Virus record (IMG/VR): IMGVR_UViG_3300048691_000224
Origin: a virus
Lineage: Duplodnaviria; Caudoviricetes
Length of the DNA stretch: 64,000 nt
Reading direction: 5' to 3' (one strand)
Part shown: positions 5,968-59,205 of the stretch, one piece after another
Numbering within the stretch: position 1 is the stretch's first letter
Layout of the letters: each line of letters starts with the position of its first letter
Translations under genes and position numbers: made by a program
The notes under the pieces: model-generated
The model's input: the letters and a program-made list of their open reading frames with translations, nothing else
Told to the model about the DNA's origin: nothing
The model's database searches: none

Positions 5968-7854
5968 ATGGATACTACACAAAAATTAGCACTGTACACC
6001 GAGGCTAAAGACGCCTACTACAACACTGGCACACCTCTCATGTCTGATGCAGAGTTTGATGCGCTTGAGTTAGACCTCATCGATTCAGGCGCACTCACTA
6101 TGACTAAAGTGGGAGCGCCTGAACGCGCGGGTAAGGTAGCACTACCCACACCAATGGGATCATTGGACCAATTGCGTACAAATGCTGAAATTCTTCGTTG
6201 GACGAGCAAATATCCTGGAGAGGTGATCGTCATCAGCGAGAAAATTGACGGCAACAGTTTACTACTGCAGTACAAGTCAGGGGTATTGGTTGGATCATTC
6301 TCTCGTGGTGACGGGCTCCGAGGCGCAAATAACCTGCGACACTCACAGCATATCACATCAGTCATTACCAAACTCCCATTTCAATACACTGGCACAATTC
6401 GTGGTGAAGTTGTTGTGGCGAAAGCTGACTGGAGCACAATTCAATCAATTGCTGCTGCTTCTGGAAAGGTCTACGCCAACTCACGCAACTTTGTAGCTGG
6501 ATTCATGAATGCTTCAGAGTCTGACCTTGCGATCTACAAATATCTAACATTTGTGGCATACCAGGTCACTCCAAGTCACTCTACCCCTTTGGACAAGTTG
6601 GATCAATTTGCGCTATTACAGCGCGGTGGCTTCACAATTCCTACAGTCGTGCAGTATGTTGCACACGCAGTCAATGAAAATCGCCTGATTGAGTTGACGA
6701 AAAATATGATCACACAATCTCGATATGAGCTCGATGGTTGTGTTGCTGAAATCAATTCGAGTCGCTTTCATTCGATTCCGACAGATCCCACCAATCTCAA
6801 CCCTCCACACGGTCGTAAATTCAAAGTCATCTCAGATGCCGCAAGCGCTGTGACCACCGTGACTCACGTTGAATGGAATATATCCAAGCACGGATTACTG
6901 AAGCCTCTCATTCACTTTACCCCAATCTCACTCGATGGAGCTACGATTACTAAGGCGACGGGACACAACGCACGAATGATGCAAGACAAACAAATCGGAG
7001 AGGGCGCGGTAATTCGCATCGCTCGATCAGGCGGCGTGATTCCAAAATTAGTTGATGTCATCAATCCTGGAAACTTTGTGTTGCCACCCGATTGTACGTG
7101 GAATGGAGCAGGAGTAGAATTGGTTAGTGCGACAGCATCATCACCAACCGAAGAGATTGAAAAACTAGCATACTTTTTTCAAAAGTTGGAGGTTGATGGA
7201 GCAAGCATTGGTGCTGCAGAAAAGTTACACAGTGCAGGATTGACCACGTGGATCGCGGTTGTGACTGCTCCTCAAGAAACTTACACTCAGGTGATTGGAA
7301 AGGCTAATGGAGCAAAGATCTTCAAAAACTTACACGCCGCACTCGATGAAGTATTGTTCGCCAAGTTTGCAGCGGCGTGTTGTGTATTTGATCGCGGAAT
7401 TGGCGAGCGCAAGCTAACAGATGTTATCAACCAATTGAAACTCACTGATCACTATCAAGTTCTTCTCCAACCACGCTCAGCATTCTTGGAGCTTGATGGC
7501 ATCCAAGCAACGTCTGCGGATAAATTGGTAGCAGGATTAGCCGAGTTGCACAAGCAGTTGAAAACACTCGAAAATGCATCATCCACAAAAATTTCATTCA
7601 CCCGCAGCGTGCCTGTTAAGAGTGTTACTTCAGGTGCACTTATTAATCAAGTGATTTGTACGACAGGTGTCAGACTGAGTCCAGAACAGAAGGACAGTAT
7701 AGTAGCACTCGGTGGAGAAGTGACAGATACACTTTCAACTGCAGTTACTATCCTGGTAGCAAAGGATCCTGACAGTACAAGCGCTAAGATTGTAAAAGCT
7801 AGATCTCGTGGAGTGACAGTCATGTCCCTTGCTGATTTTGTGGCTAAACTCTAA
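5968..7854 (+). CDS. ligA: NAD-dependent DNA ligase with C-terminal BRCT
   Basis: MSDAEFDALE, PMGSL, active site EKIDGNS, SRGDG, RGEVV, NSRNFVAG, ELDGCV, OB-fold RSGGVIPK, HhH region, BRCT (LGGEVTDTLS...LVA...SAKIVKARSRGVTVM). Confidence 0.97.
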   Translation: MDTTQKLALYTEAKDAYYNTGTPLMSDAEFDALELDLIDSGALTMTKVGAPERAGKVALPTPMGSLDQLRTNAEILRWTSKYPGEVIVISEKIDGNSLLLQYKSGVLVGSFSRGDGLRGANNLRHSQHITSVITKLPFQYTGTIRGEVVVAKADWSTIQSIAAASGKVYANSRNFVAGFMNASESDLAIYKYLTFVAYQVTPSHSTPLDKLDQFALLQRGGFTIPTVVQYVAHAVNENRLIELTKNMITQSRYELDGCVAEINSSRFHSIPTDPTNLNPPHGRKFKVISDAASAVTTVTHVEWNISKHGLLKPLIHFTPISLDGATITKATGHNARMMQDKQIGEGAVIRIARSGGVIPKLVDVINPGNFVLPPDCTWNGAGVELVSATASSPTEEIEKLAYFFQKLEVDGASIGAAEKLHSAGLTTWIAVVTAPQETYTQVIGKANGAKIFKNLHAALDEVLFAKFAAACCVFDRGIGERKLTDVINQLKLTDHYQVLLQPRSAFLELDGIQATSADKLVAGLAELHKQLKTLENASSTKISFTRSVPVKSVTSGALINQVICTTGVRLSPEQKDSIVALGGEVTDTLSTAVTILVAKDPDSTSAKIVKARSRGVTVMSLADFVAKL

Positions 7855-14257: not shown

Positions 14258-15397
14258 GTGATAGACACAGAACACTCTCAAGTATCAACACATAACAGAG
14301 GAGCTTTGTTAGACATCATGCAAAAAACATTCGACGCGGTAGTATTCATTCTTCGTGGACAGCCGCTCCATAATTCTCACCTCAGTACAATCATCCAAGC
14401 AGCAGAGTTTGCATCTCAAGTGATCATACTCATTGGATCCAGTAACCGCCCTCGGACCATCAAAAATCCCTTCACATTTGAAGATCGCCGTAGCATGATC
14501 CTTGCTACGCTAGCACCACTCTCGGAGATCTACTCACTAGAAGACACGACGATTACAATCGCCCCACTCAATGATTATGTGTATAGTGATACAGGTTGGG
14601 AAATTGAAGTCCAACAGACAGTATCACAATGCACCAAACCTGATGACAAAATTGCGATCATTGGATCTAAAAAAGACTCCAGTAGTTTCTATCTGAGTAA
14701 GTTCCCACAATGGGAATTAATCGAAGTTCCAATTACCGAACAACTTTCATCTACCGACATTCGGAGTTTATATTTCCAACGAGATCCAAATCTCAATTTT
14801 CTTACTGGTGTGATGCCACAGCCTGTAATCACTTGGCTGAAAGACTTTGCTACAACGAAAGAATTTTCAGACCTAGTAACGGCTCGGGAGATGAATGTGA
14901 AATACCGCGCACCGTATTCAGCACTACCATATGAAGTAATCTTCGTGACAGCTGACTCGGTTGTGGTGCAGTCTGGACACGTATTACTAGTAAAGCGCCG
15001 CGCTAATCCTGGTAAGGGTTTGTTGGCTCTCCCTGGTGGATTCGTCAATGCAGTTGGTGATCGAACTGTCGAAGATGCAGCGATTCGAGAATTGTATGAA
15101 GAAACAAGCCTCAGAGTTCCTGAGAAGATTGTCAGAGGTTCTATTACACAAACTCGAGTATTCGATGCACCAGGCCGTTCAGAGCGGGGTAGGACAATCA
15201 CTCACGCAGTTCTCATCGAGTTATCTGAGCCAGGTGGAGTCTTGCCAAAAGTCAAAGGTAGCGATGACGCTATTAGTGCTAAGTGGTACCCAATATCAGA
15301 ACTAAAATCAGAAAATATGTTCGACGACCATTTTGATATTATTGTAACCATGTTGGGTGTACAACCAACAAAATCAGTTTCCCCAAGCAGTTTCTAG
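14258..15397 (+). CDS. nadM: Bifunctional NMN adenylyltransferase / ADP-ribose Nudix hydrolase (NadM-Nudix)
   Basis: RGQPLHNSH (HxGH-like), IGSS, KNPFT, LSSTDIR; C-terminal ALPGGFV...AAIRELYEET, RSERGRTIT, FDDHFDI. Start may be ATG 14318. Confidence 0.92.
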   Translation: MIDTEHSQVSTHNRGALLDIMQKTFDAVVFILRGQPLHNSHLSTIIQAAEFASQVIILIGSSNRPRTIKNPFTFEDRRSMILATLAPLSEIYSLEDTTITIAPLNDYVYSDTGWEIEVQQTVSQCTKPDDKIAIIGSKKDSSSFYLSKFPQWELIEVPITEQLSSTDIRSLYFQRDPNLNFLTGVMPQPVITWLKDFATTKEFSDLVTAREMNVKYRAPYSALPYEVIFVTADSVVVQSGHVLLVKRRANPGKGLLALPGGFVNAVGDRTVEDAAIRELYEETSLRVPEKIVRGSITQTRVFDAPGRSERGRTITHAVLIELSEPGGVLPKVKGSDDAISAKWYPISELKSENMFDDHFDIIVTMLGVQPTKSVSPSSF

Positions 15398-15499
15398 ATG
15401 AATTGATACCTGTAAGTGAAGTGATATACACGAGATACTTCAAGTACAGTCCATTGAGAAACTTTTTCAAAAACGCATAAACTAAAGGAGTTTTATAAC

Positions 15500-16894
15500 A
15501 TGCGCACATCTTCTATCCCTAACATGAAGTCTATTTTATTGAATGTAGACAGCTATAAAGTTTCCATGTGGAAACAACACCCACCTGGTACAAAGAAAGT
15601 ATATTCTTATGTAGAGTCCCGTGGTGGTCGTTACACAAATACAGTGTTCTTTGGGTTACAAACCTTCGTCAAGGAATATCTACTCACACCCTTCACACAA
15701 GCAGATCTGGATTTTGCAAATAAATTCTGGACAGCTCACGGTGAACCATTCAACTACGATGGCTGGAAGTACATTTTGGATGTGCACGGTGGATACTTAC
15801 CGCTGGCCATCTCTGCGCCTGAAGAAGGAACAGTAATTCCTTATAAAAATGTTCTGGCTACTGTCGTAAACACAGACGACAATGTGCCATGGTTGACTAC
15901 TTGGGTCGAGACAGCAATGTTGCGTGCAATTTGGTACGGTACGACAGTAGCATCACAATCCTGGACAATCAAACAGATCATCTTAGATTACCTTGAAAAA
16001 TCTGGAACACCCGAATCAATAGGGTACAAATTACACGATTTTGGAAGTCGTGGGGTGTCATCATTCGAATCAGCCGGCTTGGGTGCTTGCGCTCATTTGG
16101 TGAACTTCTCGGGTACAGATACTGCAACCGGTCTATTGTATGCACACGTGTACTACGGTGCTGATTTGGCGACTACTGCTCATTCTATACCCGCCTCTGA
16201 ACACAGCACAATTACATCCTGGGGTCGTGATAATGAACGTGATGCGTATGCAAATATCATCAAACAGTTCAATAAGCCTGGAGCACTATTCGCCTGTGTG
16301 AGTGATTCATATGATATCTATGCTGCATGTAGAATGTGGGGATCTCTGAAGTCAGAATTAGAAGCAGGTGGTGGTACACTGGTAATCCGTCCAGACTCTG
16401 GTGATCCACTCGATGTACTTCCTAAGATGTTGACAATTCTTGAGAAAGAATTCGGAGTTACTAAAAACTCCAAAGGTTACAAGGTACTCAATACTGTACG
16501 GCTGTTGTGGGGTGATGGTATTGATGAGCTGTCTATCCGATCCATTCTCCGTACGGTAGTAGACTTACACGGATTCTCTGCCGACAACATCGCATTTGGT
16601 ATGGGTGGAAAACTCTTACAAATTGTTGACCGCGACACTAACAAATTTGCAATGAAGGCTTCAGCAGCACTGATTGGTGATGACTGGGTTGATGTGTTCA
16701 AAGATCCAGTCACAGATCAAGGAAAATCTTCAAAGAAAGGTTTGGTCACATTGTACAAGGGTGCTGATGGCAAATATTTTACCGCCCTAATTGACCCATT
16801 GTACGAATCTGAACTCCAACTTGTGTTTAGAGATGGGGTACTGATGCGAGATATGGATCTTGAACGCGTTCGAGCTAATTCTGATAAACGCTAA
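15500..16894 (+). CDS. nadV: Nicotinamide phosphoribosyltransferase (NAMPT)
   Basis: DSYK, YVESRGG, FFGLQ, LHDFGSRG, SIPASEHS, SDSYD, IRPDSGDP, GDGI, FGMGG, KDPVTD. Confidence 0.96.
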   Translation: MRTSSIPNMKSILLNVDSYKVSMWKQHPPGTKKVYSYVESRGGRYTNTVFFGLQTFVKEYLLTPFTQADLDFANKFWTAHGEPFNYDGWKYILDVHGGYLPLAISAPEEGTVIPYKNVLATVVNTDDNVPWLTTWVETAMLRAIWYGTTVASQSWTIKQIILDYLEKSGTPESIGYKLHDFGSRGVSSFESAGLGACAHLVNFSGTDTATGLLYAHVYYGADLATTAHSIPASEHSTITSWGRDNERDAYANIIKQFNKPGALFACVSDSYDIYAACRMWGSLKSELEAGGGTLVIRPDSGDPLDVLPKMLTILEKEFGVTKNSKGYKVLNTVRLLWGDGIDELSIRSILRTVVDLHGFSADNIAFGMGGKLLQIVDRDTNKFAMKASAALIGDDWVDVFKDPVTDQGKSSKKGLVTLYKGADGKYFTALIDPLYESELQLVFRDGVLMRDMDLERVRANSDKR

Positions 16895-36056: not shown

Positions 36057-36311
36057 CTTTAGGTTGAACTGGCATGGTTCTAACCAAGAGACAATCATAT
36101 GCTATTTTCACCATCACTGTCGATGGAACACCAATTTTCTTTTCCTGATGAGATCACCTATAAACCAATATGACAACATTCTATTATAACAAAACAGGTG
36201 GGTTGATTAGTATCACTTGGCCACGTGGTACAGTGAAAACATTCTCTCCCCCCTGTGTATCAAGATAATAATTTCATATCAACTATTACTCACTACGACT
36301 CACTACGCAAA

Positions 36312-37160
36312 ATGATTCACGATCTACAATACATTAAACTAATTGAAACCATCTTGAGAGATGGTGAAACAAAAACAGACCGTACAGGCACAGGTACCCG
36401 CTCGATTTTTGGCTATCAAATGGTGTTCGACCTACGAGAAGGATTCCCAATCTTGACAATCAAAGAGACTCGATACAAGACAGCGTTCTTAGAGATGCTC
36501 TGGTTCCTTTCTGGGAACCACAATATTTCGTGGCTTAATGAACGAGGATCTAAATTGTGGGATCCATGGGCGGGCCCAGATGGTTCCATTGTTGGATACG
36601 GACAGATGTGGAGAGAGTGGCCACAGTATTCGCTACACTCTATCCGCCCTGATGCTGCGGTATTTGAATCCTCAAGTGTAGTGGATCAGGTGCGGGTTGT
36701 GATTGATTCTATCAAAACAAACCCCGATTCACGCCGCCATATTGTAGAAGGTTGGGACCCATCTCGTTTGGGTGACTATTCACTGCCACCATGTCATAAA
36801 ATGCACCAGTTGTATTGCACCAACGATAATCAGTTGGACCTCCAGGTATACGTCAGATCAAATGATATTGGATTGGGTGCCCCATTCAACATCGCTCAAT
36901 ATGCACTATTGCTGAGCTTATACGCCCAGTGTACTGGTAGGACACCACGCAAGTTAATTTACACCATTGGTGATGCGCACATATACGAAAATCACATTCC
37001 TCAATTGAGTGCTTGGCTACAAACATATAAACCTGTAGAATGTACTCCACGTCTGGTTATTTCTAATCCTACTACTGATATCGATTCATTTCAAATGAGC
37101 GACTTCACGATTACTGGATACGAGTGTAACCCTTTCCTAAAACTTCCAATTGCGGTATAA
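36312..37160 (+). CDS. thyA: Thymidylate synthase
   Basis: DRTGTGT, EMLWFLSG, PDSRRHIV, LPPCH, YVRSNDIGLGAPFN (Asn indicates dUMP specificity), GDAHIYENH. Confidence 0.97.
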   Translation: MIHDLQYIKLIETILRDGETKTDRTGTGTRSIFGYQMVFDLREGFPILTIKETRYKTAFLEMLWFLSGNHNISWLNERGSKLWDPWAGPDGSIVGYGQMWREWPQYSLHSIRPDAAVFESSSVVDQVRVVIDSIKTNPDSRRHIVEGWDPSRLGDYSLPPCHKMHQLYCTNDNQLDLQVYVRSNDIGLGAPFNIAQYALLLSLYAQCTGRTPRKLIYTIGDAHIYENHIPQLSAWLQTYKPVECTPRLVISNPTTDIDSFQMSDFTITGYECNPFLKLPIAV

Positions 37161-37165
37161 CCCAT

Positions 37166-37288
37166 ATGAACTACATCAAAAAATTAGCTAACCAACTCTA
37201 CTTCTGGTACCAAACAGAACCGACAGCACCATCCACAATAGGCATGGTTGCCATGGTGATCGTGATGGCCGTATTAATCCTAGCTTAA
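37166..37288 (+). CDS. 40-aa TM microprotein (not in ORF track)
   Basis: MNYIKKLANQLYFWYQTEPTAPSTIGMVAMVIVMAVLILA. Confidence 0.5.
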   Translation: MNYIKKLANQLYFWYQTEPTAPSTIGMVAMVIVMAVLILA

Positions 37289-37292
37289 AGAT

Positions 37293-37733
37293 ATGATAAA
37301 AGCGCCCCTTGATTGGAAGTATAGTGTAATTGAACGCCAACAGGTGGGTCTGGTGCTGACTGGTGAACAGGTTAAACAGTTTGCAGCGAACAAAGTGTCG
37401 ATAGTCGGCGCCCGAGTGGTATTTCAATCAAGTGGTTCAGGGGCGGTCACGGGGTTCTCATTCCATGGAGTGGAGACTCAAGAATCAATCAAGATCCTCG
37501 CCCACAAAAAACAACTTGTGTCGTGGCAATCGAAAGGCGTTAAAAACGGCATGACGTGGATGGTAGCGGAAGTTGAGCAAATCAACGGCAAATTCAAAGC
37601 AATCATCGCATTATGTAGGGGCAAAAAACTTCAAGATGTTCGTGCTGATAGTAAGGCCAAAACCGTCGATAAGATGATTGCCAACACTATGAAGACCAAA
37701 GTAAAATCACCAAGCTCTTACAGCACTAAATAG
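37293..37733 (+). CDS. smpB: Divergent SsrA-binding protein (SmpB-like)
   Basis: [29 protein letters not shown] aligns with SmpB [38 protein letters not shown] with [25 protein letters not shown] with KVKIGVAKGKKQHDKR. Confidence 0.8.
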   Translation: [146 protein letters not shown]

Positions 37734-58377: not shown

Positions 58378-59205
58378 ATGAGTGATTTACAAACAATCTT
58401 AGAATGCGTAAGCACGCAATTTGGTATCGCAACTGGTAATGCTATCAAAGCAGAAATCAGCAATTTAGTTGGTATGCAAAATGTTGACTTGACAGCAATT
58501 AATGCTGCAATCACACAGATCAATGCTCTTTTGGATACTGATCCAGAAACAGCTGGCGTCCAGTTTAATGCTGCTTCGTTGATCGCACAGTTGACCGACT
58601 TGGGTTCACGTTTGACCACACTTGAGAATAGTGAAGTTGTTCAGAACTTGACAGTCATCATCAACCAAATCGATACTTCATTGACTGCTGAAGTTACCCG
58701 CGCTCAAGCTGCTGAAGCTGCATTGGGTGAACAAATCACCACCATCAACGGTACAATCGCCACATTGACTACTCAATTGGCTGCATTGGAAGCCTCTGGT
58801 GGTTCAGGTGGTTGTGATTGTGCACAGATCGCTAGCGATATCTCTGCTCTTCAAACAGCCGTAACAAATTTGCAAGCAACTGATGCAGGAACAGCTACTC
58901 AAGTAGCTGGGATCCAAGCTCAATTGGCAACTTTGGCATCTGATATCGCAACGGCTACAGCTGCCGCTGCTGCTGCTAGTGCTTCTGCTGCTGCTGCTCA
59001 AACAGCCGCCGCTGCAGCTTCCGCAGCTGTTGCCACATTGGCGACAGCCGTCGGTGAATTGGACACACGTGAAAACGAGCGTCACAATGGCCACGGTGGT
59101 AGACTGAATAGTATCGAAGGCAAAATGAATGCCATCGAAGCTATCGACTGTACAGCCTTGGCTGCTTTGTTCTCAGCAGGTATCACAAGCGGCTTGGCTG
59201 CTTAA
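58378..59205 (+). CDS. Ala-rich coiled-coil fibre-like virion protein
   Basis: RBS AAAGGA; TAAATA at 58282; long heptads, EVTRAQAAE, poly-Ala. Confidence 0.7.
   Translation: MSDLQTILECVSTQFGIATGNAIKAEISNLVGMQNVDLTAINAAITQINALLDTDPETAGVQFNAASLIAQLTDLGSRLTTLENSEVVQNLTVIINQIDTSLTAEVTRAQAAEAALGEQITTINGTIATLTTQLAALEASGGSGGCDCAQIASDISALQTAVTNLQATDAGTATQVAGIQAQLATLASDIATATAAAAAASASAAAAQTAAAAASAAVATLATAVGELDTRENERHNGHGGRLNSIEGKMNAIEAIDCTALAALFSAGITSGLAA

Follow-up and report, generated by a model that had tools for sequence, protein, structure and literature searches.

A strongly diverged phage-encoded SmpB with no tmRNA gene in the surrounding DNA

tmRNA genes are common in phages, and a phage-encoded protein partner is much rarer. 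A 146-residue reading frame in a 64,000-nucleotide stretch of viral DNA (record IMGVR_UViG_3300048691_000224; hereafter, the whole stretch is called the window) raises the question of whether it encodes such a partner and, if so, which RNA the protein would serve. Read from the sequence alone, it had been taken for a divergent SmpB that either works with a tmRNA encoded elsewhere in the phage genome or acts as a decoy on host trans-translation. Our analysis confirms a genuine, strongly diverged member of the SmpB family. Of the two proposed roles, partnership with a phage tmRNA is favoured by analogy, as three of five cultured relatives carry such an RNA and other SmpB genes with a short central loop lie beside permuted tmRNAs; the decoy is left without positive support.

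Family membership and fold

The gene and its parts are as follows.

37293..37733, + strand: smpB-like gene, whole feature (146-aa ORF; Pfam, NCBIfam, PDB, AlphaFold2 and Foldseek)
37293..37619, + strand: SmpB beta-barrel body, residues 1–109 (E. coli alignment; secondary structure of the model)
37464..37490, + strand: shortened central loop, approximately residues 58–66, HGVETQESI (alignments)
37620..37730, + strand: C-terminal tail, residues 110–146 (alignment and model)

The protein matches the Pfam SmpB profile PF01668 over profile positions 9–142 of 143 (53.4 bits, E = 3.3e-14, gathering score 27) and SmpB chains in the PDB with a best E value of 1.6e-8. It also matches the unnamed phage family PHROG 6791 (E = 1.4e-10). 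Scores against the two NCBIfam models, 53.7 bits for TIGR00086 and 51.1 bits for NF003843, lie under the respective equivalog cut-offs of 119.1 and 130, which are the NCBI thresholds for assigning the same function. An identical protein is encoded on 17 metagenome contigs, and JGI gene calls agree on 6 other contigs. Close relatives are few: among 1.8 billion cluster representatives, only five proteins were found at E ≤ 1e-10, with P0002 (54% identity), P0003 (46%) and P0004 (38%) the closest.

An AlphaFold2 model, built with an alignment of 17 relatives, reached a mean pLDDT of 85.5. In a Foldseek search of the PDB, all 21 matches to E = 1e-3 (20 at E ≤ 0.001) were SmpB, and the next match had an E value of 0.16. 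The OB-like beta-barrel and flanking helices superimpose on Thermus thermophilus SmpB (1wjx) with a TM score of 0.86 and an rmsd of 2.2 Å, at the upper end of the range of 0.79–0.86 obtained for solved bacterial SmpB bodies, which include that of Aquifex aeolicus (1p6v). Alignments to ribosome-bound E. coli SmpB (6q97 and 7ac7) cover 142–144 columns, spanning the full length and including the tail helix. A fold search of BFVD returned no SmpB-like viral structure at E ≤ 0.001, which we take as a gap in that library and not as evidence. Six weak tblastn matches in cultured phage records were set aside; they come mostly from short unannotated records and may be host DNA.

The identification made from the sequence alone is borne out by the Pfam score, 53.4 bits where 27 would suffice, and by a model that matches SmpB structures alone. 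The SmpB OB-fold is present in the predicted structure rather than missing, and the profile score lies above the gathering threshold rather than at background. Both strings quoted in that reading, GKKLQDVR and a 15-letter piece of the tail, occur in the translation, and its statement that SmpB has been reported in huge phages is correct (PMC7162821).

Residues, central loop and tail compared with canonical SmpB

We used E. coli SmpB (b2620, from NC_000913.3) as the reference for numbering. The phage protein is 24–26% identical to bacterial SmpB and shares its order of elements, but lacks the usual N-terminal extension and opens directly with strand 1. The hinge is kept, with G110-K111-K112 at the positions of E. 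coli G132-K133-K134, and D115, R117 and K121 correspond to Asp137, Arg139 and Lys143. Ile68-Leu69-Ala70 occupy the place of the Leu90–92 patch, with Leu69 at the position of Leu91, which is nearly invariant in the alignment; Trp8 retains an aromatic residue at the position of His22. Lys102 is the counterpart of E. coli Lys124, invariant in the alignment and said, after Dulebohn et al. 2006, to have a functional role. The Leu90–92 hydrophobic patch packs on G19 of tmRNA, and a role for His22 of E. coli SmpB has been described (PMC8363625).

Four other tail positions have changed. Gln114 replaces His136 and Val116 replaces Lys138, which turns the DKR motif into DVR, and K123 and V125 stand in place of Arg145 and Trp147. 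Position 136 is Tyr, His or Phe in 130 of 158 aligned relatives and Gln in only 3; position 138 is Lys in 146 of the 158, with Val restricted to this phage and its 97% variant. The 80 SmpBs taken from IMG/VR viral contigs all have Tyr, His or Phe at 136 and Lys at 138. The two closest lineages have likewise lost the aromatic side chain at 136: G001, the closest uncultured relative, has Val there and P0003 has Ala. The G052/P0004 lineage retains Phe136 and DKR. Experiments have given these positions functions in the decoding centre: G530 of 16S rRNA is the stacking partner of His136 (Tyr126 in Thermus), and replacing this residue by Ala in E. coli lowers activation of the EF-Tu GTPase 44-fold while leaving ribosome binding and in vitro peptidyl transfer intact (PMC3895274). 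Near the same nucleotide, Lys138 and Arg139 bind the 16S backbone; changing all three residues of DKR abolishes tagging, and single changes have marginal effects (PMC4151336, PMC8363625).

The tail as a whole is long and basic, with 37 residues compared with 29 in E. coli, 10 Lys or Arg against 3 Asp, and a net charge of approximately +7; a helix is predicted over residues 116–138. The sequence-only reading had described the tail as changed, which holds for its sequence but not in the sense of loss or shortening.

Shortening of the central loop, claimed in the same reading, is upheld: depending on the alignment, the loop has 8–11 residues compared with 17 in E. coli and is thus 6–9 residues shorter. 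Loop lengths among relatives have a main mode at 16–17 residues and a second population at 5–10. The central loop contacts tmRNA's tRNA-like domain and is credited with helping alanylation, and its loss has been known only from Carsonella, Hodgkinia and hemoplasmas (PMC4131195). In those SmpBs, as in the phage protein, the loop is lost or shortened with the beta-barrel intact, and the tmRNA partner is missing in some lineages. Theirs is a case of genome decay in endosymbionts, with the tail lost in Carsonella, whereas the phage protein has a full-length tail and its gene is maintained in several phage lineages.

Phage context, conservation and the search for a tmRNA

The window is packed with same-strand genes, which include those for a thymidylate synthase, an alpha/beta hydrolase, an RNaseH, a clamp-like protein and structural proteins. 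Neighbouring and other features mentioned here are listed below.

36255..37160, + strand: thymidylate synthase gene thyA (Pfam PF00303, 295.7 bits), upstream of smpB in three lineages
37166..37288, + strand: ORF of 40 codons in the thyA–smpB gap, its C-terminal half hydrophobic (ORF list)
5968–7854: NAD-dependent DNA ligase
14258–16894, + strand: NAD salvage pair, a NadR-like cytidylyltransferase/NUDIX protein and NAMPT

Among cultured phages, tblastn places the RNaseH closest to jumbo phages of 300–385 kb (XacN1, Stenotrophomonas CM1 and RAS14, Xoo-sp13 and RsoM2USA) at 31–33% identity. Judged by this RNaseH similarity, the source is probably an uncultured freshwater jumbo phage whose nearest cultured relatives are of the XacN1 type. 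Its DNA recurs in approximately 20 freshwater metagenome runs. The NAD salvage pair and the ligase are typical jumbo-phage auxiliary metabolism. G001 (54 kb, from IMG/VR) is collinear with the window sequence and its extension from 32.9 to 71.6 kb, and CheckV rates it 20% complete, which puts the genome near 270 kb.

The junction between thyA and smpB differs in divergence on its two sides. Compared with G001, genes at 32.9–37.2 kb have pS values of 0.18–0.72 and 75–91% identity; beginning with smpB, pS reaches saturation, and the SmpB proteins share 54% identity. To judge from these values, the junction looks like a recombination (mosaic) boundary. The 40-codon ORF before smpB is also called at the matching site of G001 (L194 3735–3857) and may encode a conserved small membrane peptide. 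Behind smpB, an alpha/beta-hydrolase gene follows after 27 nt in the window, and G001 has an additional DUF6899 gene (L194 4291–4614) that overlaps the smpB 3′ end and is absent from the window. The G001-type phage carries the segment corresponding to approximately 33–95 kb of the window in reverse orientation to the segment corresponding to 11.7–25.8 kb: contig L187 is collinear with the latter and connects via G051 (L169) to the distal end of G001. An assembly join would explain this arrangement, as would a large inversion between two closely related jumbo phages. A scan for promoters and terminators around smpB gave nothing above shuffled expectation. Elsewhere, at 58953–59034 (+ strand), a weak Rfam match to isrG (30.3 bits compared with a gathering score of 100, E = 3e-4), with weak overlapping matches on both strands, is probably a strong hairpin at the 3′ end of the 58378–59205 gene.

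Intact smpB orthologues are present in at least four related uncultured phage lineages, among them G001 (54% identity, 146 aa), P0003 (46%) and G052/P0004 (40%). The order thyA–smpB is kept in three of them, the window phage, G001 and the P0003 contig L007, where thyA is 77% identical to that of the window; this adjacency describes context and not function. On the 110-kb contig G052, smpB sits between tRNA clusters. Between the window and G001, SmpB ranks eighth lowest of 44 shared genes (54% identity, median 72%), and the neighbouring ThyA is 90% identical. pN is 0.32 and pS 0.84. On these comparisons smpB evolves fast yet under constraint, as a gene that is maintained and not decaying. Contigs from four metatranscriptome libraries overlap smpB, with partial coverage of the region that leaves gaps, and variants in these RNA libraries amount to 9 third-codon changes and 4 conservative replacements (A51V, V52I, S77L and R109K). 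The contigs suggest that smpB is expressed, with DNA carry-over a possible source.

The absence of a tmRNA from the window, noted in the sequence-only reading, stands: neither tRNA nor tmRNA was found in the 64 kb by ARAGORN or by Rfam searches at gathering thresholds and at E ≤ 5, permuted models included. With an extension (L162) that takes the sequence to 71.6 kb, the stretch free of tmRNA genes reaches 37 kb upstream and 34 kb downstream of smpB. Approximately 200 kb of relatives' DNA, comprising G001 with its extensions and the 110 kb of G052, likewise yielded none; an RF04321 match in G001 (11 bits, E = 0.12) is noise, as ARAGORN and Rfam found nothing there. A permuted-tmRNA pattern scan of IMG/VR matched at least 120 contigs, and among those listed none came from the lake samples in which this phage occurs. 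Because the window is approximately a quarter of the genome, the absence of a tmRNA from it says little.

G052 itself (IMGVR_UViG_3300046313_000683), a jumbo-phage fragment, carries approximately 20 tRNAs and a short-loop SmpB with no tmRNA. One of its tRNAs (L200 15279–15352) has a CTA anticodon, an amber suppressor that ARAGORN labels tRNA-Pyl.

Among short-loop SmpB genes on IMG/VR viral contigs, 8 of 11 have a permuted tmRNA within approximately 2 kb. On contig L011, a short-loop SmpB 36% identical to ours is followed directly by a permuted tmRNA, called by ARAGORN and scoring 46.8 bits against RF04321 (gathering score 47). A short loop is thus no sign of a partnerless protein. Permuted tmRNAs directly downstream of short-loop smpB genes lie at L011 2809–3224, L211 9125–9595 and L212 2097–2567; their tags are unusually long, at approximately 30 residues, with several lysines, and end in ALA or AFA.

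The SmpBs of huge phages (PMC7162821), here represented by G003 (385 kb) and L210 (369 kb), resemble the window protein in being phage-encoded beside an investment in tRNAs and translation factors and in having a loop shortened to 10 residues. In the complete G003 genome, smpB and a permuted tmRNA are 14 kb apart. The SmpBs of huge phages and IMG/VR contigs differ from ours in their Pfam scores of 150–169 bits compared with 53, in Tyr or His at 136 compared with Gln, in DKR compared with DVR, and in a permuted tmRNA 0–14 kb away, where the window smpB has none over the distances given above. Bacterial smpB, for its part, adjoins ssrA, ratA or rnr, whereas the phage gene adjoins thyA.

The association does not hold in the other direction, from tmRNA to SmpB. 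SmpB is encoded by 5 of the 86 permuted-tmRNA pattern matches listed from IMG/VR, and by 1 of the 13 among these that are at least 90% complete. Three of five cultured relatives carry a two-piece, permuted tmRNA (XacN1, 123 bits; RsoM2USA, 97; Xoo-sp13, 66), and none of the five encodes SmpB. With these five cultured relatives tested, SmpB is seen in this group only in the uncultured freshwater lineage.

Possible roles of the phage protein

The most likely role, to which we give somewhat better than even chances, is that of a working SmpB serving a tmRNA. The beta-barrel body would bind the tRNA-like domain of a tmRNA, and the basic C-terminal tail would reach into the vacant mRNA channel of a host ribosome that has stalled, allowing translation to pass to the tag frame of the tmRNA. 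The more likely partner would be a phage-encoded two-piece tmRNA distant from smpB, with the host tmRNA as the other candidate. Gln136, Val138 and the short loop would then tune activity rather than abolish it; they could reflect tuning to the phage tmRNA or tolerated drift. On the simplest account, a lineage already using its own two-piece tmRNA would later have gained its own SmpB, acting on host ribosomes.

For a working SmpB count the retained hinge, the D and R of DKR, the residues at the Leu91 and Lys124 positions, the basic and predicted-helical tail, and intact copies across lineages. In E. coli, the His136Ala protein supports peptidyl transfer in vitro, and single DKR changes have marginal effects. 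The wider phage group uses tmRNA, and in G052 smpB sits between tRNA clusters. Against it count the lack of a tmRNA in the clade DNA examined, scores under both equivalog cut-offs, the rare Gln136 and unique Val138, and the finding that a non-stacking residue at 136 cuts activation of the EF-Tu GTPase. The gene also belongs to the faster-evolving fifth of the 44 genes shared with G001, which would fit relaxed or altered function too.

[quoted passage not shown] We think this improbable, and the link drawn in the sequence-only reading to ribosomes stalled by defences that cleave tRNA or mRNA is speculative. A decoy would account for the changes at decoding-centre positions with tested roles, His/Tyr136 to Gln and Lys138 to Val (PMC3895274, PMC8363625), for the shortening of a loop linked to alanylation, for the missing aromatic 136 in the two closest lineages as well (Val in G001, Ala in P0003), and for an smpB without tmRNA linkage, unlike most other short-loop phage copies. 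Titration also has a precedent in the RNA of mycobacteriophage DS6A, which consists of the tRNA-like domain only (PMC4131195). However, nothing speaks positively for a decoy, and normal in vitro peptidyl transfer by His136Ala SmpB (PMC3895274) argues against such a crippled factor. A long basic helical tail with hinge and D.R kept would be superfluous for a simple tmRNA sponge, Phe136 and DKR are kept in the G052/P0004 lineage, and related phages carry their own tmRNA, against which a block of trans-translation would work. A related proposal, to which we likewise give low weight, concerns the clade of the window phage, G001 and P0003, which has lost the EF-Tu-activating aromatic and most of the loop. 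Its protein might act as a rescue factor that is either private, being orthogonal to host SmpB and serving only the phage two-piece tmRNA, or antagonistic, as a dominant-negative that shuts down host trans-translation during infection.

Re-use of the SmpB fold, as a tmRNA-independent A-site rescue factor or as the partner of a tRNA-like phage RNA other than tmRNA, seems to us quite unlikely. It would suit the divergence of the protein, with 53 bits compared with 150–169 for five SmpBs on IMG/VR contigs bearing permuted tmRNAs, and the lack of a tmRNA in the DNA reachable around smpB. What is conserved, however, are the positions through which SmpB engages tmRNA and the decoding centre, and we know of no SmpB-fold protein with a tmRNA-independent role. 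Least credible of all is a decaying or functionless gene acquired from a host, with which a pace of evolution above that of most neighbours (54% identity; median 72%) and scores under the equivalog cut-offs would agree. Against it stand a reading frame that stays intact at 146 aa in two phages whose proteins differ at 46% of residues, intact copies in two further lineages, pN well under pS, a confidently folded model and thyA–smpB linkage kept in three lineages.

SmpB in huge phages has already been published (PMC7162821), and SmpB relatives are encoded on at least 531 IMG/VR contigs. Because ssrA is a known integration site (PMC4131195), many of these contigs probably represent host DNA flanking prophages inserted there. 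The novelty lies in a small clade confined to phages that evolves fast, has non-canonical decoding-centre residues and shows no linkage to tmRNA. Because positions that were mutated in E. coli (His136 and Lys138) have changed in the window copy, together with a shortened loop, this copy offers a natural test of how much decoding-centre mimicry trans-translation needs. If the protein is simply a working SmpB, it is ordinary jumbo-phage cargo; were it to prove inhibitory, phages would have a new type of tool against a quality-control pathway of the host. A phage with both components, tmRNA and SmpB, could run ribosome rescue independently of the host supply of SmpB and direct it to its own tag.
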